Source: Lingula anatina | Taxonomy: Eukaryota > Animalia > Brachiopoda | Assembly (NCBI GenBank): GCA_051362555.1 | Contig: CM120641.1 | Span: 42,538,401 to 42,602,400, forward strand | Length of the DNA stretch: 64,000 bases | Reading direction: 5' to 3' | In this document: in pieces, positions 26,301 through 64,000 of the stretch | Position numbering within the stretch: the first letter of the stretch is position 1 | Layout of the letters: each line of letters opens with the position of its first letter | Translations under genes and position numbers: made by a program | The notes under the pieces: generated by a model | What the model was told of the DNA's origin: nothing | Seen by the model: the letters and a program-made list of their open reading frames with translations, nothing else | Database searches by the model: none

Positions 26301-26360
26301 TTAAACGTTATTTCTAAGATGTTTATTTCTTTATTCTAGGCCAAGAAGCACCGAGCGTTG

Positions 26361-26460
26361 ATGGGGTCGGTGAAGATGCCCAACATACAGACAGCAACAA
26401 AATGGACGCTGCTTCTTCTGCTGATACAATTACCAAACCATATCTTAGCACAAATAACTC
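26361..26460 (+). CDS. Cadherin signal-peptide exon
   Basis: Acceptor ttctttattctag at 26339. MGSVKMPNIQTATKWTLLLLLIQLPNHILAQIT, donor gtaagt, phase 1 matching the next exon (PCTAKG…). Not in the ORF track because it is <60 aa. Confidence 0.85.
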
Positions 26461-29400
26461 GTAAGTAGATAAAATAATAGACTATTGTTTGTTGCCAATG
26501 TTTCTTGGTGCATTGAGTTTCTTTTTTTATTGATCCAAAGCAGAAAGTGATTTTATGATTATTAAGACTACTGTTACAGCTAGTGGAAGTGATTTAAATT
26601 TCTAAGTTATACCTGCTGCTGTGGATTTATATCTGAATATGATCTTTGGGCTAATATGGTCTCTTATATGATGTTATTAGACCATATGGATTATTTGTGA
26701 TTTATCATTCCTTATTGGAAAGAAAGACATCCTGGCAAAAGGATTGTCTTTAAAAATAACAATAACTGTTTGTATTGAAGAACAATTAAGTTATTGCTTT
26801 TTTACTCTCACATTGGTGCTGATGAGACTGCCTGTAATGATTTTCACAGTCCACTCAGGCATTAGTTTTTGCAAATATATATATCCTATAGTACAATGTA
26901 TTCAGTGGGGATTATGTAGAAATGTAAAAATGTTTTGGCATTTGAATGCTATAGATATTTTCACCAAGCTCTAACCAATCCTGGATACTGGACATACACA
27001 GAATTAAGCAGATGCTGAGACATGCAACTCAGGTCATTTGTTTTCTGCAGTTATGTAACAAGTGAAGGTATTGGAGGGTTTAATACATGTATTTCCACTT
27101 TTTAGGTTTTGTTTTAAGTATGTATTTGCGAAAGTGTGTAGGTCTTTATAGCCAACCTGTAAGACCATCAGCAAATAGACAGCAGAGCAAGCTTGAGCTT
27201 CTATAGACACCACAATTATTGCTTTATCATATTGTATTTGTTTAAAGGCCAAATCATTCAAGTTAGACTTGACCCCACACAGCCTCAATTTTAGCTCATT
27301 TAGATATTAAAAGTCTTCTAACAGTTTTTTATGCAACAGGAGCTACTTGTACTATACAAATAAACAGAAAGCAAAAAGCTAGTTCTGTTTGCAAATCTTG
27401 AATACTTTGACCTATTTGCTTTGAATTCATCTTTGAAAGAGCATCATGCACTTACCTTGATATACTATAGATATAGACAAGACAATCATGCTCTGCATTT
27501 AAATTCTTTTTTTATCAACCTCAGGTAGACAAATGGTTAGAGAGCCAGGAGAGGGGTGTTTTCTAGTTATTATTTCAACAGGAAATTATTCTCAGCACAT
27601 AATTTTTTAGGGAGAGGACATGATAGTATTTCATATTTGAAAAGCATTTAATACTTAATTTGGAGGGGGGGGGAGGCAAAATTTTATGGCATTCAAAAGA
27701 CTTTCAAAATCATACTTACAGGTATCTTTATTGCAAAAGAATATTTGCATAAAAAAGAGGAAAAATCATTTAAATTTAGATGGGTTTTTGTTTTTGCAAG
27801 TTATGATGTAAGATCTGATGTAATGTATTAAATAATTCCGGAGGAACTATTGATAGAATTGATTAACTTGTTCACGCCTAAATTTCCTATATATATGAAA
27901 CATAAATGTCTGTTGTGAATACTGTTTTTTACCACATGTGATTGGCATTATTGGATGTCATTTTCTCTAAAGAACAGAGTTAGGCAGGTCATTAAGTTCT
28001 TCTAACATTAGCTCACTTATTAATAAATAAGAAAATCACTTTAAATATATTTTATATTTCATGTTTATTGCTTGGGCCATCATAAGCTTCCAAAATAACC
28101 CAGTCCTAATTGCTCCATACTCTGTGAACAAGTTTGCAAAACATCATTAAATGGCCCCTCATCTGTGTCATATTTTGAATATTTAACACAACTAAAATTC
28201 ATACCCCCTTTTAAAGTGGAAAAAAATACTCTTCAAGACTTCAAAGACAGGTAGCAACAGGTAATGACTAATGTTGATGTCTTAAATGAAGTAAAATTAA
28301 CCACATCTGTGGAATATTTTACACCCCTTTGTTGAAATGATAGCAAATATACTTATGTTAATGACTGCAGAGGCTTGCACTCCTTTTATAAAAAGGTGTT
28401 TATAGCTAGGGCAGCAAACCCATTTGTTGCATGACTAATTGACAAAGAATGCAGTTATTGGCTAAAATTTATTTCAAAATTGATATAAGATATGAAAAAT
28501 TGCACTGATATCAACTTAAGTTTTTAGTTCAAATTTTGTTGCATTGCAATGGCTCTATTTAAGTTTCATTTAATATAAAAAAGAAAGAGAAGTCTTCATC
28601 AAAATAAAAATAAAAAAAACTACCTTTAATTGCATTTAAATTTCAAAAAAAATATATTACATTAACTTCTGATGTTTTTTGGTAAGCAGAAGTAAATGCC
28701 AGTATCAGAGATTAGCCTACACAATTTCATTAACCCGAAAGTGTATATTTTGTGTTAAATATTTCGGTATATAACACATGTTACTGCAACATGGCATAAG
28801 AAAGCCCATCGTGCATGAAATCAGTGGGGCGTAAATAATGTGGTGCATTACTTGTCTGTCTCAGCTGACCCAGTCTAATATGAATTGATGGTGAAACATA
28901 TTGGGGGTTAAAGCTATATATATAAACATGAAACAAATATGACAGGTATCAGTTGTTATTGGATAAAAATAGCTACTGTGAAAAGGAAGGGAAGTCACCT
29001 GTGATATATGTGACAAAAATGCATTTTCTATATTTTTTTAAACAGTTTATTTTTAAATTTCGACCTAAAATTGTTATGCCAATAGTTGTACCCTTTTGTT
29101 ATTGTATATATGTGAAGTTGCATTAATTGACCTGTTTTGAATGTGGATTTAAACAAATAGAGTATCCATAGTTAACTTTTTTTACAGGAAAAATGAACAT
29201 GCTTATGTAAATGCAGAAGGGTCATAATTTCAGAAGATATTAGGGAAGTGCTATGGAAGCAATTTGAAAAGGAGGGGTTTTCTGAAAAAATTGATCCTTT
29301 CACCTCTTTATTTAACCAAATTTGAGAAATGAAATAGAACCTAGATCAAATTTTGATCCAGAACATCTTTTCTAGACATATGAGTGGTTCTTGTGAACCC

Positions 29401-32400
29401 CTGATCCTGCCTGTATATTCTTTGTTGAATGCTTATTTGAAGTTGTCTTTGTTTTCAGCATGCACAGCCAAAGGTAGTGCGGCAGGCCAGGGTGAAAACC
29501 TGGTGCTAAGAGTTCAAGTATATGAAGCCACAGCTGATGGTAAGTGGGCTGGGGATAGAAAGGCATGAATGTTGAGATATATGTGAACTTCTTTAAAGGA
29601 TTTTTTTGTGTTTTTGTCCAGGAAAGCAAAGATTTTACTGTTAGATTTTTTAGCCAAATTAAAGGGAAGATATTACTTTTGTCCATTATTGATATTTTCA
29701 AAACTGTGTATAATTATTTACTTGAAAAAGAGGATCAGTAATGCTGTGGTTTTGTACATTTGATTTCTCGAAAAGGGGATTGATTGGATTGTAATCCTAT
29801 GCTCTCTCTCTATATTTGCCTTCAGAGCTGAATGTATTTAGTTCAGACTACTATGATGAAATCCAGCTATATGGGGCTCATGGACAAAATATGCAGCTCG
29901 TTCTGGAAAATTCTGCCAAAACGAAGCATGTAAATGATGTCAACGATTACTTCACTGTGGAGTATGCTGGAGGACAGAACAGAATTAGGCTAAAAAGACC
30001 TATAGATAGAGATGTAAGAAAAAATGACCAGTGAAAACACTTACTCAGCTAACACACTATTCCACATGTATGTATGGCTGGTACATCCAATACATTCTTT
30101 GAAACACTGGCACACCTAACATATTCCTGTTCTCTGTGTCATTCATTATTTATTTCATTTATTATTATTGTTATTTTTTTTTTTTTGCTTTTGCTTTATG
30201 CCAATATCCTGTCACTTAATTGATGAACTTTCATCTTTTTCTTAATGTGTTATTGGCAATTTTCATTCATGTTGCCACATCAGTTTTCTGTTTTTTTTTT
30301 ATCAATTTGAAAATTAATATAGTTTGTTGAGCTAATGGAATTTTGGTACATTTTTCAGGGTAGTAGTGCAGACACCAAAGATGATGTAGATTTAATAGAA
30401 TTCCACATTAAGTGTACCCCCACACAGGTAAGATGAAATGGTTTGTGATTTTTGGCTTATGAGACAAAGTAACAAGTAAATGCAGCAGACTTAAAATAAC
30501 TTTTTTAAGTCGGGCAAAAATGCAAGTTAAGCAGTGTTTATATTAAATTCAATTCATATTAAAGCAAATATTAATTCCTTAAGATTTGTTTAAGATTATT
30601 TTTTGAGTTATAAGATACTAGTTTTTGATTAGATATTGATTTTAATAAATTTGTATAATCTTCTAAATTTTGAAGAGTTTGAGAAACATTGGTTATTATT
30701 TTTTATCTGACATAATTTCTTAAGTCCTTGTATCTTATTCCAAACTTTTACCTAAAGTTTTTTCAATTTCAGGGAGAAGCCACAATCTATGTAACACACA
30801 TGACTATTTTAGATAAAAATGACAATGCACCAGAGTTTAAGATACCATTTGGGGGATATAAAGTATCTATTAGTGAAGTGAGTACTGCATTCAAATTACA
30901 GAGCTCAAGATACCCTGAGGATTTGACTAATTGTTAACTTGTATCAGGGATGAATTGACAAGAAATTGTGCTTTTTGTTTTCATAAGCCAAAGCATATTA
31001 TCTTCAGCATTTGAAAATTGAAAATTGTAGTAATGTTATATTTGATATGGTTGGGAGTTAGCTAGAAAATCTGCTATTGAAAAAGATAAAGGGCTCATAT
31101 AACAATACATGAAATAAGTGTCACCTTTATGTTTATAGGGCCCATTAGAGCAAAGTGAATAATTTACTGCTGTCTGTTTCAGTTGTCTCCTGTTGGCTCA
31201 GAAATCTACAACAAAATCTCTGCCACAGATAGAGATGCTTTAGACAACAAGGAAGTGGATTTTAAAGTGGAACAGGGAGATGGTGGACCTGTAAGTGTTT
31301 GGTTATTGATACTTCTCGTAGTTAATAGCAGGCCTGTAGCCAGTAGTTCCAAAAGGGGAATAAAGTTCATCTTTGTTGACTCAACCTGAGAATTCGGTTA
31401 GAACCTAGGAGAATATAAAATTTTTAGTCAAATTTTCACGACTAAAAGAACAGTCCCTTTGACTCTCATACCACCCAAATAGCATCTGATACATAACAAG
31501 GATAGATTTAAGAAGTAAAAAGTTTCAAAGGTAGACAGTGTTTTTTTGTAATACAATGTACATGAAATCCTACTAATTTCATTTAAAAAGTGATTTGCGG
31601 TCAGTGCTTTACATGGCACTGGTGGGATGGATATTTGTTAATATTCCATGGTCCAAAGTCAGTACTTACTTAACTTTTTGTGCTGTTTTCCAGAATGATG
31701 GTTTCAATTACTTCATCATCACTCTGCCTCGTCAAGGGCAGGTCAGGGTCAGAGAGCCTCTGGACTATGAGAGCATGGTCAGTCCATACTATCTGGTCAG
31801 GATTTCTGCCAGGGTAAGATTATTCATTGTGCAGATTACAATTCTAAGTAGATTGAATGGATTCTTGACATGGTTAGGATTCGAAGAGGCATGTTTTGAA
31901 GAATTTGTCCATAGGATCTGAAATGAGATGGATCAAGGATGTAGAAATCTGTTATATTGTTAAAAAAAAGGATATATTCCTGTTTTTTATGGTTTGCTTG
32001 TATACATTGCTATCTGTTATTTTTAAAGCAACCGGTATTGGTAAGTTTTCTTGTTATTTATTATTTTTAAGTTCATTACACATTTTTTTCTGAGTCTTTT
32101 GTTATTTTTTTTAGAAATTTTTTCACTAGACTCGCGCTCCCACAGTAATATGTTGAATGTTTTTCATTTGCTTAGTGCTTTGTAGTTGTCAAATTTAGAG
32201 AATTTTTATTGTGTTCATTTGAAACAAAACTGTAATGCTCATTTCCATTGTCACATTTCTCTTACACTTCACTAAAACTAAAAGCAATTCTCATATATTT
32301 TACTTCCCTTGACTTACAGCCATGCCTTTTGATCATTACATATTATTAATATGCCACATTTCTTTTAGGACAAAGGGCAGCCATCCCGAGTGGCATATGC

Positions 32401-35400
32401 TACCCTGAATATCACCATACTAGATGGCGATGACCTGCCGCCTGTGTTTACCTATGCTGGTTGTGTGGCATACGAAGACCTGTGTATCAATCCACAGTAT
32501 ACTGCCAGAGTTCTCAACAACCGGGTGGTAATTATTCAAATCTGCTTCTTTAAGTCCTTAGTTGTAGAGAAAAGTATCCTTCCCTTTTCAAAAATAAGTT
32601 GTGATACTTTGTCTGAAAATACTGAATTGAGCAAATTTGGTAGCTGTTTATTATTAATTGAGTGAGGTAGATTGGAATTTTTATTAAGCAGTCAGTTTTC
32701 TTTCTACAAGATAATATCGGACGGCTTTATAAGTAACCTACAAAGTTTTCAGTATACGAAGAGATATATGTTGCATTTTGGTAACTGCTGTTTCTCATTT
32801 ACCCTTTCTCTGATTTCAAAAACACTTAACAGAGATAGGAGTTTGTTTTAAGTTATTTTTAAACTTTTTGTAGCTTAAATCAGTATGTGATGTAATTGCC
32901 AATATTTTGTTAACATTCTCCCAGACACAGTGACACCCGCTGTCTGCCAATTTGCCTAACACATCAACACATTCAGCAGTCTCATCTACCACAATATGAC
33001 AAAATGATTGAACTTTCTCTTTCAGACTCCTGGTGTTTTGAACATTGAACCAGAACCTATAGTAGCTGTAGACAGAGACAAAATGATTGATAATTCTATT
33101 AAATACTCCTTTGTGGATGGTAAGTCTGACAACAATTCCAGTGTATTTAATGGTAATAATTATGAATGCATTGAAAATAATATCTTAGATATTTCTCCTT
33201 CTTGCATAGGTTAACTAGTTATGTTTTCATAAGAATGTTACTACCAATGTACCTATGTAAATGTATTAAGATATAAATACTGTATAAACTATTGTTTCAG
33301 TATAACTCTTTGTCTGTAGAAGAATTACCTGATGAATACTTAAGATATTTGATAAAAAGTTATCTTGTTTTTTTTTTTCAGGCACACCTAGTAACTACAG
33401 CTCTTACTTTCAAATTGACCAAAATACTGGGTCAGTTCGCCAGTTGCTGCCTGTCAGTCACTTCTTTGTCAAAGAGTTTGAGATTACTGTCAAGGTAATT
33501 AATTGCTTATGATGTCTTACGAATATGTTAGGTAAATGCACCAGCCTTCTATACACAAGCTTCTATTTATTTCTTACCCAATATATTACATAAGCAGAAA
33601 AAGCATCTTATACATGTCTTATATTCCACTAAAACATTTTTGCTTCTTTTGCTGTTATATCATGTATCAAACATAAATGTTAATATCAGTTCTTATTTAT
33701 GATCATTACCATTATTATGACTTAAATTTTAATCTGCCTCATATTATAACATGTACTGCATCCTTTCTTAGGCTGAGGAAGACTCACTGAACAAGCGCTA
33801 TGAGACAGCCACTCTGACAATATCTGTTGGTACAGTGAACGTCAACCCACCAAGTATATCCAGTTCCTATGGCTCATTCATAGGGTATGTCAGTGAAGTG
33901 GCGCCCGTGGGAACAAGAGTTAAGAACTCTGCGGGTACACGGGATCTGCAGCTGGTGGTCACTGATCTGGATTTGGTAAGTCCAGGCCACATATATATAT
34001 GGAATAAATGTTTAGTGGTAACAAACAGACAAATTTGTTGCTTAGATGCACATGCATTAAATTTATTTTCTATACTGTGTGAATATTTGCTGTTTTGATA
34101 TTGATATGAGTCACTAAATTACTTGAATATGTTTGTCATATTGTACTTAAATTTTTATTTTTTTTGCTCTGTGACAACATTGACTGTATAATACTGTTTA
34201 CCACTGTTTACACATTTTTTTTGCTTTTCTCTAAAAACCTAGTGCCTTACCTCTCCTCTTCATCACAATATGTATTCTTAATTTTCTACAGTTCCCAATG
34301 TTCTTTGTTTTTTACAGGCTCCTGGTGACCCCCCTCAGAACTACATTTATACAGTGTCTGGCACTGGAGCATTCACAGTCAATGATCAGGGGGTTGTAAC
34401 AGTGGCTGGAGCACTGGACTATGAAGAGCAACAACAGGTCACATTTACTGTAAGTGCTTGGTTCTAAGGTCTGAACATTCGAGTAATCTTATCTTTACTT
34501 TGAAAAACTTTGCAGCAACCACGTGCATTATGATTTGATACATTTTGCCTTGTGATTTGGGTAATTCATTTAAAAAGGCCAGAAGTTTTGATGTTTTTAA
34601 CTGCTAATGTCTGCGAGTTACAGTCATGCACAAAGAGCTAGACTTAATAACAGAATTTCTGGTCTCTCAGTAGTTTGAATGAAATATGAAGATATACAGT
34701 TCTTAACATGTCATTATGATTACATACCAGGTAACTGTAACAGAGGCAGATACAGCAGAGCAAAGATCAAGCACAGTGCCAGTGACTGTAAATATCAGAG
34801 ATGCCAACGACAACAGCCCTTTATTTGAGAGTAACATCTACCGTGCTACTGTACAGAAGACACCTGTTTCTGTTCCTGTGGTCCAGGTAGAGATATATTA
34901 TGTTTTTTTATTGATTGCATTTGGGATGATTTTTTTGAAAATTAAACAATTAGTTAGGTTACTATACTGAAGAGCTGTGTCTTAGCATGTACCAGGTAGA
35001 TACACCTTGATACTTTTGGTTGGTAATAAAAGGGGCAAAAGTCATGCTAAAAATTTGGTGGAATGACCCTTTTATGATATTCTTGCTTATAATACCAGTA
35101 ATACATTGTACCTGTAGGTTGTTGCAACTGATGGCGATAGCGGTGAAAGTGGGCGTGTGACATACTCCATATTGTCCGAGGACAATGGGTTCCAGTCTTC
35201 CTTCCGTATCAACCCCAACACTGGTCACATCAATACCCAGGCAGAGCTGTCCCCAAGCCTGGCACCATATGTACTCACAGTACAGGCCTCTGATAATGCC
35301 CCAAACCCAGCAGACAGAAAGTGAGTTTATTGTTAACAGAATGATACAACACAGAAAGAGATTAAGGCATATTTTCACAGTAATTAACACTAAATTATTG

Positions 35401-38400
35401 TTTAATGCAACTATACGGAAATGTGTGGACAGGCTTTTAGGTCTTTTCAAAGAAAAACAATTGTGTACTGTTAAATGAATGGTTTGATTCAGGAATCGAT
35501 TTTTGGAGACTGCATCTGATGTCAGAAGTGAAGGATGATCCATTTTGTAAGATGGATTCCACCATCTAAAAACCAAGCCATCTAAACCAGTGTCATTTTT
35601 GTTGGTTGTCCAATCTTAATTCTGTTTTTGATATTATGAGCACAAAGTAGCACAATAAAAAGAAATGGAATTGGCATTGAATTGCACAGTAAGTGGTTGA
35701 CAATTTTTTTCTTTATTCCAGTACTGCCAATGCTATTGTGATGGTGTTTGTAAATGACACCAGAAGTGATGGGCGGCCATCTTTCTCCAGCTCAGAGTAC
35801 AACATTGCAGTCAGTGAGGGTGTGCTGGTTAATTCCAACATTTTCCAAGCCCCTGTAAGTATGGCTGTGTTACACTGAACACAACAGAGTTGAAGTACAT
35901 CCAAACACATTGTAGAATTGTCACAACTAGCACAATGAAGCCATAATAGAAAATAGGGGAATGGAGCAAATAATATCATGGCTTGAAATATTCAACATCA
36001 ACATTTTTGAGAGTGCACTTGACAAGTGTAAGATTATTTTGTTAAAACACTTTATACAATACACTTAGTGCATTTCATTACCAGAATATGTGTTTTAATA
36101 TTTTCCTCTTCTATTGTTAGGCATCACACCCAAATAACGATAGGCTAAGGTTCTCCATCTTGAGTGGAAACACAGGCAACATGTTTACAATTGATGCTTC
36201 CAAGTACGTATCTAAAAAGTTCTACCTATTACATCATGATATGTTAAACAGAATATCTGGTGACATATAGAGTAGCAGAAGAAATCTTCAATTGATAGGT
36301 CAATTAAGACATTTTTGCCTGAATACATGATTAAAACTGAAATGCATAAGAATCATAACTGATAACATAGCGTTAATAGAGGCCTTTAATGATTCTGAAG
36401 TGTGATGGTTGTCAGATATAAATGATATTAGTTCTGTTCTTCGTTTCAGTGCATATCTGGGGGGTATAGTTCGAAACAGCCAGCCACTTGATAGAGAAAC
36501 AGTTTCAAGATACACTTTGGTCCTGAAGGCAGAAGATAATAGTGGAAATGTGAGTGATTTGCCATTTCAGATTTTGTTTTTAAAACAGTTAATGCAGTGG
36601 GAATTTTGAATTTATAAGTATTGAAAATGATTTTAATCAACTAGGGGAGAACTATTACCTATACTGTTTCCTATGCAGATGCTGCAGTTACTGACATGCA
36701 TTTGATTACAATACTTTCAAAATAAGAGTGTTTTGGACAAGTTCCATTGATTTCTTCTTTGTGTTATGTTCACAGAAAAATGTACCTTTCATCTATAGAT
36801 TTTGCTTTAAATCAGTTAGAGAAAAAAGTATTTATTCAGGTTATATATATATATTTTTTATAATTTTATTTTTGTGAAAACTGTATAAGATATTTAGGTA
36901 ATCTATTTTTTTCCTTCAGATTGCTACCACAACTCTGAACATAAATGTCACAGATATTAATGACAACAATCCAGTTTTCCTGGGGGTCTCTCCTAGGGTA
37001 TTCAGTGTGAGGGAGGGGCAGCCGCCACCTGTCAGGGTTGGAACTATACGGGTAATGTATTTATTGTTTCTGATTAGAAAAAAGGGGTTTACACTAATAT
37101 TTCTTCATTATGTGTCATCAGAAATCGGTATGTGATTGTGTATAAATCAACACTAACACACAGTTTATACATATTATTTAGTTTACAAAGTGAACAAGGT
37201 CTTGATACATGGCTGAAAGCTTTCTATTAAGCTTTTGGATTTTAATTTGTTGTGAGTATGAATATAATTGGTGCAGATTAAAGGCATATATAGTTTTTGT
37301 TTTGCCTTTAGGAAAAAATGTAAAAGACTTTAATTTTTCATCAATTTTGTCTTTAGGCAAATGATGAAGATGCAGGAGAGAATGGAAGAGTGACCTACAG
37401 GATTCCAGCAAATCCGTGAGTTATAATAATAACAATGAAAATATAAGAAATAAATTAAGTGATAATTGTTGGTCAATATGCTGTCATTTTGTTGCAGTGT
37501 TTTGTGGGTTGTCAGTTGGTAGAATTAAGCAGTCTTATTATTCTTAGAATGATGTATGGCCTTTCCTGTAATTTTATATCAAATACTGATTCATTCTGCC
37601 TTTAACTTATACCTAACTTAAAATGCTTTTGAAATGTGGTTAAATTCACTTCATTGGCCAAAAATAAGTAAAACGATAATATTTGTCTAGAAAAATGTTT
37701 AAATTTTTTACCAGTTTATCAATGTATTTTTTAGATTGTTTAATATATTCAACAGTAAAATTTATATGGAATCATAGATTATCCTAGCCGCACAGATGGT
37801 CATTCTAGCTCATCTGAGCATGAGATGTCTGTGCTTTCTGCAGAGGGGTTGTCAGAGATTACTTTTGTAACAAAGTTTCGGTTTATTTCTAGATACTTCA
37901 CAATCACTGAAGATGGTGTCATTTCCACCTCCCAGCCTTTGGACTTCGAGATGGCCAATGTCCACAATTTTGTTGTGACAGCAGAAGACCATGGTTTGGT
38001 CAGTCGCAAGAGTGTGCTGCCGGTCACTGTGAACGTCATTGATTTGCAGGATTCTACGCCAACATTTGTGCCACCATTGAACCTCTCTGTCCAGGTGTTG
38101 GAGAATAAGCCAGTAGGAACTATTGTTACAACAGTGGCTGTAAGTATTTGATGGCTCAATAAAGAATAGAAATTCAACTCTATTTTGGTGAAAAAGATTG
38201 AAATTATATTTGAGTGAATTTGTTTATGAATTAAGTGAAAATTTAACTTAAACAGAATGAACAAGCAAAATGGAAATTTAAAAGTATATACTGTTCATAT
38301 TGTTTAGTACAATTAATTAAACAATCTTAGTTTGCCTTTTCAATAATTGTGATTTGTTACTAGCCCTATCCCTCATTAGTATCAATCACCTTTTCTTGCC

Positions 38401-40242: not shown

Positions 40243-40313
<71 letters not shown>

Positions 40314-46300: not shown

Positions 46301-47120
46301 TATACAACTATAGGACAAACAAGTTCTTGTAGGTCTTTTTCTCTGCAAGTCTTTAGTTTTCCAAAATAACCATGTGTCCACCAATCTTCACTTCCAGTTT
46401 TCTGTGAGGTGTTCTGACAATGGTAACCCACCAAAGGAGAGCTCAAATCTTGCTGTGGTAACTGTGAGAGTCCATCGTAACCTGCACGCCCCGAGATTTA
46501 CCCAGGGTGTTAATTATGCCACCAATCTGACTCAAGACACAGCCCCAGGGACATTTGTGTTTGATGTGGATACCACAGATGATGATGACAAGGTAGAAAT
46601 GCGTTATTGTCATTATCTCACCATTTTTTAGCAACAAAATTTTATGAATTACTTTTACCTTCCTTATTTGTCATGCAGCTTTCTGTGATGAATAATAAAA
46701 ACTTGATATTAATCATTTCATCGGACTCGATTTTGTCACTGTGAGTTCAAATGTTACATTGTTACACACTGAAACATTGTAGCATTTGACACAAATTATA
46801 AAACAGATTGAAAGCTTATTTTTTGTAGACTAAGTGTCATTTTAAAATACAAACTCACATATCTTTTAATTTAAATTACATTTGCAGGCACCATTTAATG
46901 TTGTGCGATATGAGATTGTTGGTGACTTTCCATCTCCTCAGTACTTTGCTATTGATGAAACTACTGGACGTATCATTGTTAAGGAAAATCTTACTGGAGT
47001 GGGAGCTGGTGACTTTAAAGTGAGTAATAAAAATTGGTTTTAAAACTTTGGTTGATTCGATTCAATAAGATTTGGTTTCCTTTTGATACTGTTGGGTTTG
47101 TTAAGTGAAGACAAGTGTCA

Positions 47121-47171
<51 letters not shown>

Positions 47172-53100: not shown

Positions 53101-54885
53101 GTGATACATCTGTCCTGAAAATTAACGTCATACGAAATGAGAATGCTCCCATTTTCCCAGCCAGCTATCAGCGCTTTTCTGTCAACATTTCCGAGATCCA
53201 TGATGTTGGAAGAGTGGTTACCCAAGTCCTAGCTGAGGATGAGGATGGAAGGGTAGGGTTTTCTCATTATATCAGACTAGTCAATGAGAAATTTTTATGT
53301 AAAATATATGGGGGTTAACATTTAAAGATTAAAATTTCATTTATACTTTAGGGTTGTAGTTTTGTAGTCCCATATGTTTCTTTGAATACAGTTATTGCTC
53401 TCAGCTCTCATTTGGAAAAAAGTGAAATTCATTTCATACCTGAAAATACACAGGCAAATTATTTTTGGCTGTTAAATATTCATTAAATCATATATTCACA
53501 ATAACAATTATTGAAGGAAGATAATACTTGGCATAAGATGCAATGATTCACTGTGTTTAGCTAAGACAGTATTAAGTTCCCTTGTCGTTGCAGCCTCCTC
53601 AAAATGAAGTGGTGTACACGCTTGCTGGAGATTCCTTGGCAAGGCAGTACTTTGCTATACGCCCAAGCTTACAATCCAACTTTGGAGAGGTGTTTTTGAG
53701 GAATTATTTGACTCAGGACCTGGATCGTAACACTGAATATACTGTGAGTCTCAACCAATGCTGATATAGCATACTCTACACAGTTCTATTGATTGTAGAC
53801 TTAACCTTCTTCTGCATTTTTGTAACATTTTTCAAATTGATTCAATTTATGCTGCAGACGACTCTGTCAGGTTCAGACCTTATACTTGTTTCTTTTGTTG
53901 TTGCTATTATTATACTAATAAAATTGTCAGAATAGACGCTTTTTCTTAACTTAAAGTAAAAACAAAAGTGTCCAAAAAATTTTAATGTAGATGAAAGATG
54001 ATACAGAGGAAAAACCACTAATCTGCACCTGCCATCTATTATGTTAAATATTTACGTTGTATTATTATTTTTTTCAACAGCTGACTATAACAGCCCAGGA
54101 CAAAGGTACCCCACCACGTGATGCGTCGAATTATGCCTTGATTACTGTCTACGTCAGTCGCAACAATTTTGCCCCAAGGTTCATTCAGCAGCCGTATGTG
54201 GCCAATGTCAACATCACTGATGGGGCAGGCAGTTATGTGTACAGAGTTTCTGTAGAAGATAGAGATGATAGTGTAAGCACTGAAGCATTCTGAATCTGTG
54301 TGTATGCTGTTATGTATGTGGGACATTGGTTCAAACAGTTGTTATTGACATAAATGTGTCATTAATGCAATTTAAAAATTATCTGAAATTTTGAGCAATG
54401 ATGTATCTGGCATTATAATGTACAGAATTAGTCAGAATAAGTAAAGTGGCTCCATAATTATGCCTTCTTACTCATTTCATAACCTACATAAATATTCCAT
54501 TTATATGTTTATTAATAAGTAGTTTTGATCTGATCCATGTTTATTAATGAGTATCTGATTGAGAATCTGATTGATCCATGATTATGAATTGATGAACTTG
54601 AACTTGTAGGCTCCGTTCAACCAATGGACCCTGCACATTATTGGTGATGAGGAAGCATCAGCATTCTTCAACATTTCTCAAGATGGAGTTATCCGCCTGA
54701 GACAAAACCTTCCATCGTCTGTCAGGGACTTCTACATGGTACGTGCCGATATAATTTTAAATTGTGCTTTGAAATGGTGTATGCTAAAAAGTATTATGAG
54801 GGAATGTATACAAAATTGTACAGTTATAATGAATGTATAAAAATTCATTAACTTATGTAAGAAGTGTGTATAAGCATACAAAGGC

Positions 54886-54981
<96 letters not shown>

Positions 54982-57900
54982 GCATATGATAATTGGAAAT
55001 TATATAGTTATATACACAATATTATGTGATGATAGTTTTGAATTATAACAAACTTATATTAGGGTTTTAGCTAATTATCATATTTCGGTGTTCTAGGTCC
55101 GTGTTGAAGCAAGAGATGGTGGACGGCCCTCAAGATTTGCTACAGCTACTGTCAAAGTGAACATCAATAGTAACTTTGTCACACCTTCCTTCAACCACTC
55201 ACGGGACATCTACGCCAATGTCAGAAATAACCAGCCTCTGTACCAGCCATTCCTGCAGCTGTTTGCCACTGATAATGACATCAGGGTATGTAGTGTGACA
55301 TTATGATAATGGTTTCTACAGAAACTGCTTTACAAATATAAGCAAATAAAATGTTGAGCTTATTTTTATGTAGAAAAGCAGCTTATGATTACAAAATTTG
55401 TCTATCCCTTACGAGAAAGTCCTATGGGATCCTAAAGATTTTTTCATTAGGGATGTTTATTTCTTGGCATGGTGACTTTGTAGCATTTTTTAATTTGTAA
55501 GAAAAAAATCAATGTCTAGTTGTAAAACTCTCAAATGCGAATAATAGATATATAGATGGTTTAGACATTTCAGAAGTAGTTTTTGTGCCATCATCTTCTC
55601 TTTCCTGTTTGATTTTTTATTTATTTTACCATGTGTTTCTAGCTCCAGGACCGCACTCTTGTCTATAGCATTGAAGGAGAGGGACAGGCGGAGGAATACT
55701 TTGGTATAGATCAACAAAACGGAAAGATCTATCTACTGAAAACTTTATTGGGCACAACAATCAATAACTTTAAGGTAAAACATCACCCATAGGCATTTAT
55801 GTCAGTGGCAACATGCTAACAATATGTCTAGATCTCTTTGTTTGCCCAAATTGTAAAGACCATTTAAAATTGAATATTGAGATGGATATTGACAATATTG
55901 TTATTTTTTCCACATGACACACCCACATTGAATGAGGTATTAAAATGGCATGCTGTATTTACAAACTAACAGAAAAATATGCTTGTGTTGCTTTTATCAC
56001 ATTAATTGTCTGTAAATTTATTAATTTTTTTATTGCACTGTTACATTTGTGGGACAGAGGGCAGTGCTGTTTTATTACCATTTTTTTTAAAAAGTTTGAG
56101 ATATAATAATTGCTGAATTTTTGACATGACAGCTCCAAATAGACAAATTAAGTGAACACTTTCTCATACTGTAAATCTATGAATATATGAAGTTTATTTT
56201 TTTTTCCAGCTGATTGTGAAGGCTACTGACCAGGGAACACTGCCACGATCTGTGACCACCAATGTGTACATCAATGTGCTCAGGGACTCAGGACTGCTAG
56301 GTTTCAATGAAACTATTCGCTCAGTTACCATACCAGAGACGCTGCCAGTGGATGAAAATGTGATCAGACTTCAGGCGTCACCTGGTGTGAGTAGACACAA
56401 GCTAAGACCTGGATATTGTCTTTCTTGACACTAATTATAACTGCACTCTAGCTACTGAAATGTACTAGACCTGGGGCATCTCTTGGAGATGACTCGTAAC
56501 AGCATCATACCGGTTGCTATGACAAAAGTTGCACCAACATAACAGAAGTTTTTTTAAAATAAATTGTTATATTTGTCACCATGATTGCTTATATATGACC
56601 CAAAACAACACAGTATCATCACCTTTTATACAATTGTTGCTTTCATTTCTTATAGCAAATAATGTAGAAAGAAAACTTTTTTCATATGGCAAAAATAAGG
56701 CATTACACCAAATAGTATGTCCAAATAAAATTATAAACATTCTGTCAACTTTTCAGCCTCGCATAACATATCATCTGACAGGATATGATTCAGGGCCCAA
56801 GTTTTTCAAAGTTGATTCTGTGACAGGACAGATCAAAGTGAGATCAAGCCTGGAGAGAGATTTGGCAAAACAAGAGCAATATACTGTAAGTGACAAGCAG
56901 TGATAGAGAAAGCATACTGTTTTAACAGTGTTTCAAGTTGTTGTATGGTTTCTTTTCATTGAAATAAACATAATTTTATGTGGAGACTTTGGATCGCATG
57001 AAGTAATTGATTAGCTATTATCACTGTAATTGTTGCCCCACATTACTGCTTTATACTGATTATATAATTGGTAAAATTATAGTGTAAACCTTAAGGTAAA
57101 CTGACATTCATCTTTTTACTGCCTCATCTACTATACGGAAATTAAATATCACTTCCTGAAGTGGAAAAATGTGCAGAAAGCAGAAAAAGTTACATACATA
57201 ACCATTCTCCAAGAAAATAGTAGATATATAGAACTCACTGTCTTGTTCTTATTTCAGCTTATCGTGGAGGCAAGGAAGTCATTTGAGGTTAACATTCAGA
57301 CGGCAACAACCACAGTTCTGGTCAACGTGATCAGGAACGAGAATCCTCCATTGTTCAACCCAAGATACTACCAAAAGAATGTCACTGATACATTTGCACT
57401 TGGAGGACTTGTGGTACAAGTGATTGCTTCTGACAGAGATGGAGTAAGTTGTGAATATAATAGGGATTTTTTATGATAAGCAGGAGAAAGGATGTATCTG
57501 CAACAGTTACAATTAACATTAACATTGCCAGTATAGTGGTACTGTTGTATACAGTTGTACTTGTCACATACAATTACAATCTTAGGTGTCTTGTGAAATA
57601 GTGAAAAAAATTTAAACTGAGAAACAAGACACTTATAATCAAAAGTTTCATTTTTTCCCATCCCTTATTGTCAAAATGTAATTTGAGATATAACAAAAAA
57701 ATTACAGAAATTTTTTGGGGTTGCTCTAAAAATCTGTCTTCAGTGTGAATACTTATGTTTGTTGACCACTAGGTGGATCTTTGATCAGCAGTTGTACGAA
57801 CCAAGTCACCATCTTCCCCGTCATGCTTTATTGTTTTGCTCTCCTTTTTTTCATTTTAATATATTCCTTTGTTTTTCATTTTTAGCACTCTCACCTATGG

Positions 57901-60900
57901 TGTCCATATTTTTTGCACCTCTCTCCTAGTTTACCATCAATTTTGGATGATAAAAATTAAAACTTTGTTAGAAAATGTTCAAAGCACATTCAGATGAAAC
58001 TATATGATTCTGCTTCATGGTGATATGCTTTGAGACACAAGTTGGTAATTGATGGAAAGCCACACATTGATGAAAACTTTAATTTTTTCACTGCAGGATA
58101 AAATCACTTATGAGATTCCCAATACTGTCAGTAACAGACTTGGAAGCAATTACTTCTATGTCCATCCAGATGATGGAATTATTTATTTGAAGCAAGGATT
58201 TCCACGACAAGGAACAATGAACATTACAGTAAGTTCTCACCAAGAGATAAAACGTTCATAATAATTTCTTAAATTTGAATAGATAGACTTGTATTGAAAT
58301 ATATATTCATGTTGTCGGATGATTTTTTAATGTATTTTTGCTCATTTATTTGTATTTTATTAGTAGATTTCTGTTTTTTTTTGTGAAAATTATGAAATAT
58401 AAGAAATTAAAGCTATCTGCCATGCTTTTTCCATGAGATGTGAAAAACTGGACTAGATATGATGTATTTGATGAATAGGTGACAGTCGTGACTGCTCGGT
58501 TCTAAAACTTGGACATTATTTTTTTTTTTCAACTTTTCTATTTGAGAAATTAAGCCTTAATTATGAAGCTTAACATTGGTATGCCTTCAACAACACTATA
58601 AGCACTCATATTTGTACCAAACATTTTGCTTTTCTTCTTCAGTTCAGCGTGTTGGCTTATGACAAGGGTGGCAAGAATGACACGGCTATTGTGAGGGTCT
58701 ACGTCATCCCCGACCCCACGTCCCCAGTATTCCTGAACACCCCATACACCCTGAATATCTCAGAGACAGTGTTACCAGGGGTGGTCATATATCGCAGAGT
58801 CAGGGCTGCCCTCACTTCGGTAAGTAAAATATGTAGTATTTTTTAGAACTAAAAATACTTATTTCGTATCGTCAAGTTGGGATGATGGAAAATACAGCTT
58901 CATTAGAGAATCATTAGCGGCACGTAGATGAAACTACTCTGCTTTGTAGTTTATTTTAAAGGTAATTTCTGCAAGTAGTCAAATTAAGAAATAGTTATAT
59001 TGAACTACAGTGCTATTCAAAGTCAGTATTGAACTTGAAGTCAGTTTAATAACTATAATATCACTTTGATACTCTTTTGTTTCAGGGCACCTTGCGGTAT
59101 GAACTGGCTCCCTCTGGTATTGCACCAGTTTTCTTTAACATCAATAGAACCACTGGTGATATCAATATAAGATATGACCTCAGGGCTGATAGACAACTCA
59201 TCTATAGAGTAAGTGTAATGTGGTTTTGTGAGCCATTGTCAGGATCACAGTTTTCAAAATATTATTATCATAAATCTGAAAAGGAAAATAGTAACTTCTG
59301 ATATCTTTTTGGAAACAATTAGTAGAAAATGCCAAAAAATTAAGGTGTGTCATGAACCTCTTATTTTTTAAAAAAAATTTTGTCTCTGATTTGATGAATT
59401 CAAAACTGATACATTATCATTCTAGCTGAAAATCCGTGCCTTTGATGTGAACAGTCCGGAGCGTGAGAGTTATGAAGATATGATCATCTATGTGCAGAGG
59501 AATGTCAACCCTCCTGTGGTGTATGTGCCAGACAGAGCATACATAAGTCTTACAGTCAATGAAAGTCTGCCTGTGGGGTCCCAAGTCTTCCAGATCTTTG
59601 CTAATGATTCAGATGGGGTAGGTGTTTTTAATTTTAAAGAAGGTGACATATGATTATTTTGATTCCCAAAATTATGTTGTGTTTGAGCTTTTCAGTATTA
59701 AGCATAAAGTTCAGCTTTGCCATAATTGTCTTGCTTCTCATTTTGATATTTGTGCTGTTAGTCATGGGTTTGAATGATATGCTTTACACACAGCATCATA
59801 ATACATGTAGTAGCAAATGTTAATGTGTATCAAAGTTGTATACAATATTATCAGTCATGCTGGTTTTCAATTTTGAATGAGAAGAATCAATCAGTAAATG
59901 CTTCTGTTGTATTTTTCAGGACAATCTGATCTATGAGTATTTTGCCAATACTCTGAGTAGTGCCAGGCAATGGTGGTACCTCAACCCATCCACTGGCACG
60001 ATTACCCTTGCTAGGCCTCTCTCTGATTCTAATGTTCGCCAGTACAGAGTAAGTTTATTCTGAGGCCACATTCAACCTGAGTTGGCCAAGTCATTTCCCA
60101 AAAGATAAGAACATATAAAGCTTTTAAAAACAACAGTAGCCATAAATTTACTTTACCTAAACTGAAAACTTTGTTTGTGTCCTCATTTATACCATATTGC
60201 CTTTTAAAATAACCATGTTTCTAAAACATCAATAACATCAGATACGGTTTTCTTCACAGGACTGGATAGCACTGTATGAGGCCAATCATAATTCCATGTT
60301 TTATTTCCAGCTTTACATCATAGTGAAGGATGATGTTATCCCACATGAAGTCCAGAGAATGAGCAGTATCATCAACGTCGACATCAGGGTGTTGAAGAAT
60401 GTGTTCCCACCAACATTTGGAAACGACACCTTCTCTGTGACCATCAATGAATCCTGGCCTATTGGATCCACTGTGATGATTATGCAGGCTATTGACTCAG
60501 ACACAGAGGTAAACTAGCTCCTACAGGGATTTATTACATATCTAGTCTCTGCTTCTTAGGGAGTTAGTGGACTTGTAAGCCCAAGGGAATATATTTGTCA
60601 GTGATATTACTGTGGCATGCAGTATTTACTACTTGGAATATTTAGGAGGTTTAGAAAAGTACAACTGTAACCATGGGCTATATTGGAAACAATTTAAAAG
60701 CATGCAGTGTTCTTCAAATGCATGTATAGTATTTGCTGCATATGGCAACTACATGAAGACAGTATTCGAGTTACTTTTTGATAAGTTGTCCTTCAAACAT
60801 TTAAATCATGTGAAAAAATATATTCCACTAGTTGCCAAACAGCTCTTTTAATAATGCTTGCCATTACTTTTTCAAATTACAGGAGATATACCGCACAGTG

Positions 60901-63900
60901 ACATATAATATTGTCGATGATGGCAGACGTCCCAAATTGTTTGATATCAACCAGTACACAGGGGTCATCAGGGTCAGCAACAACCTGACTCTGGATGATA
61001 ATGAATACTACACTGTAAGTATGAGGCTTTTTTTAACTGTTTTGAATATTATGTATTAAGTTACAATTGAGATTCTACACCAAATTCAGTGAAAATGTTC
61101 CAGTCTCTAACTGAGTTAAAACAACTTACACTGATCAGAATATGAAAGTTAAAAATACACAGATTTAAGTACCTATGTGGAATATGTGGCTGTATTACTA
61201 TATAATCAAACAATTTCATATAACTTGTTATGCATCTATTTCCATATTATTATCAGTCTTGTTTCAACATGTAATGTAAATATATTTCAGTTAAGTATAT
61301 TAGCCTCAGATGCAGGCACCCCAGCCAAGACCACCAATGCTGTGGTTAATGTGCGAGTTCTACGCAACTTATACAGACCAGAATTCAATCCAGCTATATA
61401 TACTGAGACCATAAGAGAGTATATAACTTTGGGTGAACCGTTCCTTTATCTCAACACAACAGATCTGGATTATAGGGTAAGCTAGACACAATGGCACATC
61501 TAGCACACCCAATTAAGGTGCCAGAACACCTAACACAATAGCAGATCTTACATACTGTCACACCTAACACATTTACCAAGATGAGCATATCACTTTCCAG
61601 GCAAAACATATTGTTTTTTAATTCCTGAAGACAAAGTTACACCTATACTGCTTAATCCAGATTGTTTTATTGTCCACTTCCTCAGCCATTCCTAGAAAAT
61701 CTGGACATCTTAATCATTGAAGTCTTTTGCTCTAAGTTTGATGCAATACTTACTTAGGTGAATGCAGCTATTTTTACATTAATTTATTAGCATTGGCAAG
61801 ACTTTTTCAGTAGGTAAGAAAACTATACTCCTAGTTTTGCAAACAGGGTGACTGCAAAAGTGGACATTACGGACAACAGGTTTTCGGATTTTTTTGCAAC
61901 AAACTTGACAATGAGAATACTTATCACCACATAAACATTTTGAGAATGTCTGATAGACAGTGAAATTTCATGCTGAGAAGAATAATTAGAAAACTACCAT
62001 TAGGGCCATCTGGTTGTTTCTGTACTAAGTAGAACTGCAGGCCAGTTGTTTTGTTTTTCTTTTTACAGATACCATACAACAGGGTGTATTGCAGGTTTGC
62101 ACCAGGCACAAGTGCTAAAGTGCGTGAATTTTTCAACATAAATGAGAGGGACTGCTCTATATATGTGCACAAGGACCTACGAGCTGATTCTGCAAGGACC
62201 AGGAATATCAACGTAATGCAATAAAACAAAAAGCTTGAACTAGAAAATTGGTTTAATTCTAGTTTCAGTGTATGAATTGTGCAATATGAAAAAAATTATC
62301 ACTACAGATTTTGATTTTGGAAAAGGCAACTTGTTGCTCAGATAAAAGAAATATTTATTTCTGTCTACACCTTTTCCCTCTGTAAAACATTTCAACTGTG
62401 ACAGCATGATTTTTTTGTAGAAAAGATTAGCTGTAGCACCATAGCTTAGCTCTAGAAGTGAATTGGCAGTAATGAAAGCTATTAAACATCTAAAAGAGAG
62501 AAAATATTTTAGAGTATAAACCATTTGTGTTTTATAAGCAGTCATTTTGCGTTGCTTTTCCTTCATCTTTTGTATAACTAATCTAATGCTTTTCTTTTGG
62601 CTTATGTTATATGGGCAGAGCAACCTGTTTATATCTGTTGCTCAAAAATAATTTATATTCTAATGTGATTTTCTGCTTTCTTCCCTCAGTTTTTCATACA
62701 AGCCTACGATGGGGGCAACCCAGCACTCTACTCTCTGATCAATGCCCGTGTGAATGTTTTGATAGAGAGGAACAACCACTGCCCACAGTTCAATCCCAAT
62801 GGTTACACCACTGGAGCAAACCAGACTGCTTCCAATGGCAGTGCTGTGTATGTGCTGCAGGCTCTTGACAGAGATACTCGCGTAAGTTTAAGAACAATAT
62901 CTGGATGTGCATAATAGGATTTAACTTATTTAGGTTATGCCGTGCACAGGAGACCTTTATTTTGGCAAAAAATAGAACGGATTTTCCTAGAAATTTTGGT
63001 AACTTCTTCTAAATCACCAAGGTATACCCTATCCAAAACTGTGGAGAAATTTGCAATCTTTTTATCCCTTTTTTTTAGTTTAGACTTCCAAACGATAACT
63101 CAAATTTTGACACCTATAAGAAAACCAAACCAAGTTTTAATACTGTATATAGCGTATAGGCATACTGTAAAAATGTGGATTAAATACTGTTTCAGTACTT
63201 GTTAATGACACCATGACCTTTTTCCTTCCAGTCTCCTTTCAATACTCTCAGCTATGAGATAATTGGGGATGGGAGAGCACCAGCATTCTTCCACATCAAC
63301 CCTCTGTCTGGTAGAATCTTCCTCAAAGAGAGTTTGCTGCCTGACACAGCCGAGACATACTCAGTAAGTGGTCTCTAAGAGTAGTGTTTTCAGGAAACCA
63401 AACAGGTGTTTGTGTCATTGTCCATGTTAGGTTGATAAATTAGAAACCAATGTATGTGTACACAGTGTAAACTTCGTGTGCAAGTGATGGTGATTTCAGG
63501 TAACTATAAAATTACTGTATTTATTTATGATATTATTTTATGTACAGATGTTAAGCAGTCCATTCACCCATAGTGATTTTCAGTATAAAAAGGGGGTAGC
63601 CATGGAGTAATGGTTAGCCATGGACTAAACAAGCATGTAATGAAAAAAGATTTACTTAGTACATTTCTTATAATTGAATATATAACTCATGATTACATCC
63701 TGTAGGTTCGTGTGGTGGCTAAAGATGGAGCAGTTCCACCTTGCTCGGCCACCACAGTGGTCAGTGTTAGGGTCAGCAGGAATGACCACGCCCCAGTCTT
63801 TGTGGGTTCCCGTTCACTAAACATTACCATACTGGAGACACACAACAGACAGACGCCTATCAATGGAGTGCCTATTACAGCCAATGATATAGACTCTCAG

Positions 63901-64000
63901 GTAACTACTGTAATTTGGGATATGGATGAATAAATAGGTTCTTAGGATTGTTGTATATATGTATAACTCTGTGTTTGCAGGTAAATTCAGATTTATTTTT
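26361..64000 (+). CDS. Giant protocadherin-15/Cad99C-like cadherin, at least 34 EC repeats, >3,770 aa; 3' end (including any TM) lies beyond the window
   Basis: Phase-consistent GT-AG exons: 26361-26460, 29459-29539, 29826-30013, 30359-30427, 30773-30877, 31183-31290, 31694-31813, 32369-32527, 33026-33119, 33382-33494, 33772-33975, 34318-34449, 34731-34886, 35118-35320, 35722-35854, 36121-36203, 36450-36549, 36920-37051, 37357-37415, 37893-38139, 38411-38614, 38971-39084, 39498-39635, 39861-40046, 40403-40531, 40982-41161, 41396-41578, 41933-42124, 42426-42743, 43222-43359, 44165-44356, 44820-44951, 45369-45566, 46036-46164, 46398-46592, 46888-47019, 47177-47371, 48062-48193, 48724-48915, 49229-49873, 50249-50704, 51058-51384, 51634-51936, 52403-52726, 53061-53252, 53594-53743, 54081-54272, 54610-54738, 55097-55285, 55643-55774, 56210-56386, 56757-56885, 57258-57443, 58097-58228, 58643-58819, 59086-59208, 59426-59617, 59920-60048, 60311-60508, 60883-61014, 61291-61476, 62069-62212, 62690-62881, 63232-63363, 63706-63900, 63981->64000. 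Cadherin motifs DKNDNAPEF, LDYE, LDRE, DANDNSP, DINDNNP, ATDxD, AxDxGxP. Confidence 0.95.
32369..33975 (+). CDS. EC2-EC3 region carrying the PCDH15/Cad99C signature
   Basis: ILDGDDLPPVFTYAGCVAYEDLCINPQYTARV…GVLNIEPEPIVAVDRD…IKYSFVDGTPSNYSSYFQID…AEE…NPPSI. The DGDDL.P.F linker followed by a two-Cys loop (C…..C.NP.Y.A) is what I recall from PCDH15/Cad99C EC3. Confidence 0.8.
40243..40312. repeat. (AAT)n microsatellite
   Basis: Directly visible, intronic. Confidence 0.95.
47122..47170. repeat. (TTA)n microsatellite abutting a splice acceptor
   Basis: Runs directly into ttccag (47171-47176). Confidence 0.95.
50943..51045. repeat. 45-bp tandem repeat (~2.3 units) in intron 3' end
   Basis: cacctaacacaattctgtatagcataacccattgygatgytgtc starts at 50943, 50988 and 51033. 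Confidence 0.9.
54890..54977. repeat. (CT)n microsatellite
   Basis: Directly visible, intronic. Confidence 0.95.

Follow-up and report, generated by a model that had tools for sequence, protein, structure and literature searches.

A Lingula anatina cadherin of at least 34 EC repeats with a PCDH15/Cad99C-type N-terminus and an EC9-like repeat array

Gene Structure and Transcript Support

The window analyzed here, i.e., the whole stretch of 64,000 nucleotides, contains a cadherin gene of Lingula anatina whose 65 exons (26361-63900; Table 1) add up to 11,328 nt and 3,776 codons with no stop. Exon ends were called from the sequence and then adjusted by script to AG/GT; the model introns measure 157-2,998 nt, all donors are GT and every junction is in phase. 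According to segmentation, the window protein opens with a signal-peptide-like leader, which 34 complete EC repeats follow; of a 35th repeat, 36 residues are present, and the frame is still open at the window end. No transmembrane stretch was seen by eye in the translation up to that point, and tblastn of the upstream positions 1-26000 found no cadherin or paralogue C-terminus.

RNA runs were picked by species label, and their reads covered 26200-40230 and 44050-64000, with six introns within 40532-44164 lying outside this coverage. Among the 52 read joints listed, 35 were readable and 34 of these correspond to model introns, the junctions of exons 6-7 and 24-25 being additionally backed by loose read ends. 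Reads also connect the exons over the EC8/EC9/EC10 border, and one read joint, from 46374 to 56802, falls outside the gene model. Third codon positions hold 67 of the 79 exonic read differences listed (285 further differences exist). The reads are 92-99% alike; runs X7-X9 yielded many more of them than did X1, X2, and X4 from a similar number of letters read. The gene is spliced and expressed. A preliminary description of the locus had proposed this uninterrupted 65-exon, 3,776-codon spliced frame, with 34 complete repeats and no membrane helix as yet; the frame holds in the script model, the segmentation and the RNA reads, and its continuity as one transcript is borne out as far as the reads reach.

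Table 1. Coordinates of the features of the cadherin gene in the window.
Feature	Position	Strand	Evidence
Upstream non-coding exon, 3' part, start not mapped	16480..16520	+	Loose read ends at 26338 (run X7) match, then GT donor; spliced to first coding exon
Second, alternative upstream non-coding exon, 3' part, start not mapped	19225..19261	+	Loose read ends at 26342 (run X9) match, then GT donor
First coding exon, with the start codon ATG and a hydrophobic leader of signal-peptide-like type; acceptor 26340	26361..26460	+	Exon model, read depth
EC1-EC8 (aa 31-936), Cad99C/PCDH15-type, calcium linkers mostly canonical	26451..38988	+	Exon model, BLASTP, tree, segmentation
Exon 8: DGDDL.P.F at EC2/EC3 linker and EC3 cysteine pair	32369..32527	+	Sequence, PDB match
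EC9 (aa 937-1043): earliest RN-type linker end; two phase-0 introns common with array	38989..39947	+	Segmentation, intron phases
EC9-like array EC10-EC34 and EC35 start; EC10-26 alternate A/B; site-3 ligands kept, site-1/2 lost	39948..63900	+	Exon model, reads, segmentation, repeat scoring
EC27/EC28 joint: 'LGF' linker, EC28 without DxD; resembles Cad99C EC9/EC10 hinge	56210..56386	+	Sequence; same place in Solemya P0095

Family Assignment of EC1-9

Our analysis supports a PCDH15/Cad99C-type identity of EC1-9. In a BLASTP search with aa 31-1050, full-length insect Cad99C scored 414-451 bits, against at most 268 bits for Fat-type proteins, and EC1-9 are colinear with Drosophila/insect Cad99C at ~35% identity. 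Six of the nine N-terminal repeats find their best match in the same-numbered Cad99C repeat, while EC4, EC8, and EC9 match it second, the query's own EC9 being a weak match to Cad99C EC9. Cad99C has been described as the PCDH15 orthologue (PMC2171266). The DGDDL.P.F motif and EC3 cysteine loop noted earlier were found at aa 276 (nt 32423), in the EC2/EC3 linker, and at aa 289/296, respectively. The same linker occurs in a PCDH15 chain, insect Cad99C has DDDDQDP and both cysteines, and the top PDB match of exon 8 is PCDH15 (E 5.4e-6). Orthologues align in register with PCDH15 PDB chains of EC1-7 and EC8-9; in summed PDB scores, CELSR1 stands above PCDH15.

A quick SH-aLRT tree of EC1-9 (35 rows, with insect Cad99C and without vertebrate PCDH15 or CDH23; P0012, P0016, P0067, P0073, and P0098 were left out) placed the query in one group with five further family members (96), and six Cad99C form the sister of that group (100), rather than Fat, Dachsous or CELSR. 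The next clade out (99) comprises P0260, P0248, P0228, and P0114, long MAD-bearing cadherins of amphioxus, hemichordates, Tubulanus and Haliotis. Cadherins of this kind resemble the present family in a furin-type motif near the membrane and, in P0260, in Cad99C-like ends with extra repeats between them, but the linkers of the additional repeats in this group are canonical (D100 17/23 in P0260) and there is no EC9-type array. AU tests rejected a grouping of EC1-9 with Fat4 (p 1.2e-50) and with one Dchs2 row (p 9.6e-12). The BLASTP scores, the tree, the AU tests and the in-register PCDH15 chains thus bear out its PCDH15/Cad99C assignment. A query aimed at vertebrate PCDH15 and at short forms from molluscs yielded only four proteins out of 1,334 candidates, each of them a mollusc-like N-terminal piece; it missed even insect Cad99C and therefore says nothing on the absence of either.

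The EC9-Like Array and Its Linkers

Array repeats score best on Cad99C EC9 in 20/25 cases in the query and in 31/36 in Solemya, compared with 0/34 in the Fat4 control. All 43 introns from EC9 onward are in phase 0 and sit at two recurring places, and, judging from these repeat and intron patterns, the EC9 exon pair was likely duplicated in tandem to give the array. The linkers have changed from DxNDN to RNxN. The ligands of calcium sites 1 and 2 are nearly absent (D67 1/26, E69 2/26, D100 0/25), with Arg or Lys at the D100 position in 23 of 25 array linkers, while the site-3 side is kept (N102 24/25, D134 22/25 with three gaps, D195 24/25); in the Fat4 control, D67 is found in 31/34 and D100 in 28/29 linkers. 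The query's EC9 itself is devoid of DRE and DxNDN, and PCDH15 EC9 is described as missing the same calcium motifs (PMC5120219). In five relatives, the EC9/EC10 hinge linker is retained where the array ends. Within the query, the EC27/EC28 joint is a possible internal calcium-free hinge.

Calcium occupancy and flexibility of the array joints are predicted from these motifs. In the PCDH15 EC5-6 structure, as reported in PMC7547225, a single calcium occupies site 3 and the joint is flexible; alternatively, the Arg could stiffen the array joint through a salt bridge. An AlphaFold model of the relative P0007 (pLDDT 82.9, pTM 0.45), together with Foldseek, confirmed that the array repeats adopt a cadherin fold, while at that pTM it cannot tell soft from stiff linker geometry. 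The ESM Atlas returned generic cadherin clusters only. The preliminary description had also suggested a span of >150 nm. The underlying length, about three times that of an 11-repeat protein, stands; since the extra repeats are EC9-like and most calcium ligands are gone, the 150 nm should be read as the contour length of what is probably a flexible chain and not as the reach of a stiff rod.

Distribution and Membrane End of the Family

The same long architecture was detected in bivalves, gastropods, the brachiopod Lingula and the nemertean Tubulanus, which makes it a lophotrochozoan-wide variant and does not support the earlier claim of a lineage-specific molecule. Six mollusc models (P0011, P0019, P0095, P0239, P0315, and P0316) combine a Cad99C-type N-terminus with the array, and tandem paralogues are present in Haliotis and Patella. 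Public models of the relatives are often split, and their source names are mostly 'Fat 4-like', just as had been anticipated for automated annotation. No cephalopod or annelid protein was found among the 17 named family members. Ten other giant cadherins were rejected as members; where named, they are sponge or choanoflagellate proteins.

Five family proteins are colinear with the EC10-EC11-MAD-TM-tail of Cad99C, including the juxtamembrane tail motif. A single unbroken alignment joins a Tubulanus stretch to the EC11-MAD12 chains of PCDH15 (E 8e-6 to 2e-5), and the P0239 model has both termini, i.e., a Cad99C-type N-terminus and EC11-MAD12-TM. Given that the membrane-reaching relatives end in EC10-EC11-MAD12-TM-tail, the extra repeats lie between EC9 and EC10. 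Pfam scans of three relatives revealed neither LamG nor EGF and gave no name to the membrane-adjacent domain, in the relatives as in Cad99C itself. Only two of four complete relative tails have a class I PDZ end (Lingula -TEL, Potamilus -TML). In the EC10 F-G loop, four of five family C-ends carry R-x-K-R and the other T-K-R, whereas the furin-type motif is absent there from all five insect Cad99C. Six other long cadherins, whose linkers are canonical, have a comparable motif, and it is therefore not special to the long array form.

Alternative Explanations

The database labels would make this protein a Fat- or Dachsous-type planar-polarity or growth receptor, which it resembles in length and generic EC fold. 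Fat has 34 repeats, equal to the number of complete repeats in the query. However, the tree and the AU tests refute this for EC1-9, the linkers of Fat, Fat4 and Dachsous are canonical three-calcium linkers, and the query starts a 35th repeat where Fat would pass to EGF/LamG (Pfam), its relatives ending in MAD12-TM; we regard this as the least probable explanation. Hardly more probable is that the preliminary description merged two neighboring genes, one a short Cad99C and the other an independent repeat gene. The six introns without read coverage and the split public models leave some room for it, but reads span the EC8/EC9/EC10 border, junctions are all in phase, neither a stop nor a membrane helix follows EC9, and the six mollusc models each hold both parts.

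Two further explanations concern function. The protein may be a mechanosensory link, i.e., a PCDH15-type filament between cilium and microvilli, or between neighboring stereovilli, of sensory cells, joined tip-to-tip with a CDH23-like partner and with the array as its elastic part. The PCDH15-type tip, the MAD12 end of relatives and the presence of long CDH23-like cadherins in the same animals (P0228 of Tubulanus) are consistent with such a role, and the uneven read abundance among runs is as expected for a tissue- or stage-restricted gene. That unevenness may, however, stem from population or species differences, given the level of read identity, and the tandem paralogues suit a bulk epithelial role at least equally; we consider this link unlikely. 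We give less credence again to a shed filament, in which a furin-type cut in EC10 would free the giant ectodomain as a mucus, adhesive, cuticle or shell-matrix structure with no membrane tether. The EC10 loop motif and the window protein's 42 N-glycosylation sequons speak for it, as do three oyster 'Fat 4-like' genes among larval-settlement candidates (PMC6337334), which may or may not belong to this family. On the other hand, a cut in the F-G loop would keep the G strand paired in EC10, so the halves should stay joined, the motif is shared with the six canonical-linker cadherins, and the site lies beyond the window.

Proposed Function

With confidence a little above even, we lean toward a lophotrochozoan Cad99C/PCDH15 member whose ectodomain, lengthened with the EC9 exon pair, would form a long and soft tether that has its anchor in apical microvilli. 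Tandem duplication of that pair would have extended the ectodomain at the EC9/EC10 hinge, and the chain would continue past the window, as in its relatives, into EC10-EC11-MAD12 with a furin-type EC10 site, then a single membrane helix and a tail like that of Cad99C. By comparison with PCDH15 structures, each array joint would bind one calcium (site 3) and bend, the conserved Arg occupying the place of an Asp ligand, and we propose that the array therefore acts as an extensible spacer. It would place the PCDH15-type tip (EC1-3) at least 150 nm of contour from the membrane, and the tether would connect microvilli mutually or to secreted cuticle, shell matrix or mucus, thereby setting microvillus length and spacing. 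Since most calcium-binding residues are missing from the repeats, a long, flexible microvillar tether is likely. The tether role is inferred by analogy: fly Cad99C is located on microvilli, whose length is set by its ectodomain, while the same account reports no visible microvillus-to-microvillus linking, which counts against this explanation (PMC2171266). Cad99C has 11 repeats (PMC2171266) against at least 34 in the query, and it has no EC9-like array. Vertebrate PCDH15 (tip link, Usher 1F) shares the DGDDL.P.F linker, and orthologues of the query align with its chains; it differs in having 11 repeats and a few atypical joints, compared with ~25 or more consecutive site-3-only joints in the query.

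A broader version, possible though on the doubtful side, holds that EC9 was amplified 20 to 70 times into an entropic spring with an Arg-capped one-calcium class of joint, furin-cut, linking microvilli to cuticle, shell or cilia, and that octopus CDHX and many mollusc 'Fat 4-like' models belong here. Albertin et al. are said to have noted in 2015 a cadherin with more than 80 repeats from Octopus and Capitella. CDHX, with 77 EC repeats and enriched in suckers (PMC6339937; PMC6110919; both citing Wang and Ragsdale 2017), is likewise a giant mollusc cadherin, of a size attainable by this PCDH15/Cad99C family, and may be the same gene. No published account of an elongated lophotrochozoan PCDH15/Cad99C was found in the literature searched, which was without most subscription papers and both octopus papers; the text or supplements of the latter may thus bear on novelty.

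Significance

A giant mollusc cadherin is already in print as the 77-repeat CDHX; what is new here is the origin of the array, which looks like tandem EC9 copies. The results re-assign 'Fat 4-like' models of molluscs, a brachiopod and a nemertean to the PCDH15/Cad99C family, and suggest how a tip-link cadherin may change its length, namely by insertion at the EC9/EC10 hinge through exon-pair duplication. The array would also be a long, naturally occurring run of one-calcium linkers in which to probe the elasticity of cadherin filaments, a problem that underlies both the gating spring of hair cells and the design of shortened PCDH15 constructs. For the animals themselves, the protein is a candidate filament coupling lophotrochozoan microvilli to secreted coverings.

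Gene model and transcript support

The cadherin gene was modelled with 65 exons and 3,776 codons without a stop, exon ends being read from the sequence and snapped by script to AG/GT in frame. Segmentation of the translation gave a leader, 34 complete cadherin (EC) repeats and the beginning of a 35th, exactly as in the preliminary description. RNA runs sharing the species label were aligned to positions 26200-40230 and 44050-64000, introns 25-30 lying outside both stretches. Among 52 joints listed, 34 of the 35 readable ones agree with model introns; loose read ends back the exon 6-7 and 24-25 junctions and revealed two alternative non-coding exons upstream of the first coding exon. Exons are covered in runs X7-X9 and barely in X1, X2 and X4. 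Read identity was 92-99%, and 67 of the 79 printed exonic differences fall on third codon positions, a pattern expected of a coding gene that is under constraint in a population that has diverged. An extra joint outside the gene model, 46374 to 56802 (8-12 reads in each of X7, X8 and X9), may come from chance similarity or from a paralogue.

Features located in the window
Feature	Positions	Strand	Remarks
Interleukin-17-receptor-like gene	1 to ~4400, perhaps as far as 7200	minus	head to head with the cadherin gene
SEFIR domain of this gene	774-1136	minus	E 9e-19
Membrane-helix-like exon of this gene	1800-2003	minus
ILCR1 Ig-like domain of this gene	4182-4391	minus	E 1.6e-8
Cadherin coding model	26361-63900	plus	frame open at window end
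Intronic microsatellites	40243-40310, 47125-47170, 54890-54980		AAT, ATT, CT runs
EC11 loop insertion	41396-41578		Gly/Asn/Gln/Ser-rich, ~18 residues
Repeat in intron 37	47846-47930		short, high-copy, interspersed; numerous reads with loose ends in each of the four runs

Identity of the two ends

The PCDH15/Cad99C character ascribed earlier to EC1-9 is borne out by bit scores, by a tree with insect Cad99C and by in-register matches of orthologues to PCDH15 structures. Against full-length insect Cad99C, residues 31-1050 scored 414-451 bits; no Fat-type protein gave more than 268. Of the nine N-terminal repeats, six have the same-numbered Cad99C repeat as their best match and three as their second best. 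The tree was built on the best stretch per protein colinear with EC1-9 (39 hits, 5 dropped; 35 rows including the query, none a vertebrate PCDH15) and placed the query with five family members (SH-aLRT 96), as sister to six Cad99C (100); grouping with Fat4 or Dchs2 was rejected when forced. The Solemya orthologue (P0095) is in register with solved PCDH15 (119-841 on EC1-7, 844-1055 on the beginning of the chain that runs from EC8), as is orthologue P0304 (141-856 on EC1-7). CELSR1 ranked above PCDH15 by summed structure-match score, over scattered stretches. Structure prediction and search confirmed the cadherin fold of array repeats, and the fold only. The locus is a real gene that belongs, as a variant, to a known family.

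In five family proteins the chain extends to the membrane. Their last 600 residues follow insect Cad99C colinearly: the alignment starts at the EC9/EC10 linker, takes in EC10 (cysteines included), EC11 and the domain next to the membrane, and runs on across the helix and the first motif of the tail. For Tubulanus, EC11 and the stretch next to it aligned as a single piece with PCDH15 EC11-MAD12 chains (E about 1e-5) and matched the CDH23 equivalent at E 0.007; with other cadherins the match was confined to the EC part, in some cases at a slightly better E. Neither EGF nor LamG was found in the three family proteins scanned. Given this Cad99C-like C-terminal end of the relatives, the extra repeats sit between EC9 and EC10. 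By analogy, the gene probably ends likewise beyond the window (EC10-EC11-MAD12-TM-tail).

Origin of the array

Cad99C EC9 was the best match for 20 of the 25 query repeats EC10-34 and for 31 of 36 Solemya array repeats, against none of 34 in the Fat4 control. From EC9 onward there are 43 introns, every one of them phase 0 and at one of the two places that EC9's own introns occupy. PCDH15 EC9 is described as without XEX, DYE and DXNDN motifs and with prolines after DXD (PMC5120219), and the array repeats carry the same marks. Furthermore, a two-repeat unit appears to have been amplified, since inter-repeat identity across EC10-26 is higher at even lags (about 33%) than at odd lags (28-30%) and an A-strand Glu is found in 7/8 odd and 1/9 even repeats.

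Spread of the long form

Relatives were sought with one exon (proteins of 378-2,000 aa only), with a Mytilus N-terminus (2,987-5,000 aa) and with a profile of 17 linker-spanning exons (best 150 of 19,506). Among the 309 of 316 combined proteins that had at least 4 aligned linkers, 18 carry Arg/Lys for the linker Asp in at least 55% of repeats, the next value being 22%. The 17 named proteins of this RN type (DxNDN replaced by RNxN) come from Saccostrea, Mytilus, Mya, Solemya, Potamilus, Haliotis, Patella, Bulinus, Lingula and Tubulanus; none retrieved is from a cephalopod or annelid. Most bear source names such as 'Fat 4-like', 'Fat 1-like' or 'cadherin-23-like'; the 'Fat-like' mislabelling had been anticipated. 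A Cad99C-type N-terminus and the array occur together in six of them. The Solemya model has 43 detected repeats, lacks a membrane helix and looks incomplete; that of Potamilus has both ends and about 30 repeats. The array is old, since the query shares the register of several array positions with Solemya or Saccostrea. The long form is therefore not lineage-specific, as first proposed, nor peculiar to Lingula anatina; it is lophotrochozoan and widespread, occurring in bivalves, gastropods, Lingula and Tubulanus.

Tandem paralogues appear to exist in Haliotis rubra and Patella: one Haliotis model begins with a membrane helix followed by a tail and continues into the leader of the next copy. P0305, P0315, P0158 (Haliotis rubra), P0169, P0197 and P0212 (Patella vulgata) show hints of paralogues in tandem and of public gene models that were split or fused. 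In P0164 (Haliotis rubra) an RN-type array is followed near the end by an EC3/EC4-like Cad99C piece, a shuffled paralogue or fused model. Additionally, P0260 (amphioxus), P0248 and P0249 (hemichordates), P0114 and P0228 have Cad99C-like ends and, close to the membrane, a furin-type motif, but their extra repeats are canonical; they may represent an independent elongation or a sister lineage.

Giant size by itself is not unusual among cadherins: at least 50 repeats are found also in sponge, Nematostella and Monosiga proteins. Octopus CDHX is reported to have 77 repeats and to be enriched in suckers (PMC6339937, PMC6110919); it may belong to the same family. An octopus gene is labelled PCDH15 in PMC7465212. 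Our literature search turned up no description of PCDH15/Cad99C elongation in lophotrochozoans, of the array's probable EC9 origin or of the RN linker.

Linkers and putative function

Calcium ligands across EC9-34 are retained at D67 in 1/26, E69 in 2/26, D100 in 0/25 (Arg/Lys in 23/25) and N102 in 24/25; across EC10-34, D134 is kept in 22/25 (three gaps) and D195 in 24/25. All are kept in the Fat4 control. In an EC9-EC9 joint the upstream repeat would contribute an end that lacks the site-1/2 ligands and the downstream repeat a top that holds calcium site 3, and the census agrees with this scheme (sites 1 and 2 lost, site 3 kept). At 4.5 nm per repeat, the ectodomain would have a contour length of about 154 nm or more. 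The conserved linker Arg may stand in for the lost cation, or could instead stiffen the joint. The PCDH15 EC5-6 joint holds a single calcium ion, in site 3, and takes several conformations (PMC7547225). Array linkers share its ligand pattern, and from these motifs and that joint the array would be a chain of flexible joints, soft at low force.

Cad99C is located on microvilli, whose length is controlled by its ectodomain, though it does not visibly connect fly microvilli to one another (PMC2171266). The giant ectodomain might alternatively form a shed matrix filament: R-x-K-R occurs in the EC10 F-G loop of 4/5 relatives and 0/5 insects. The same motif is, however, also present in six other long invertebrate cadherins, and we regard shedding as improbable, rather more so than a sensory link made by the same cadherin, itself unlikely. 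By analogy with Cad99C, the most likely role, in which we have moderate confidence, would be that of a long soft tether joining microvilli to their neighbours or to a secreted covering. The structural story of the array is clear and testable.
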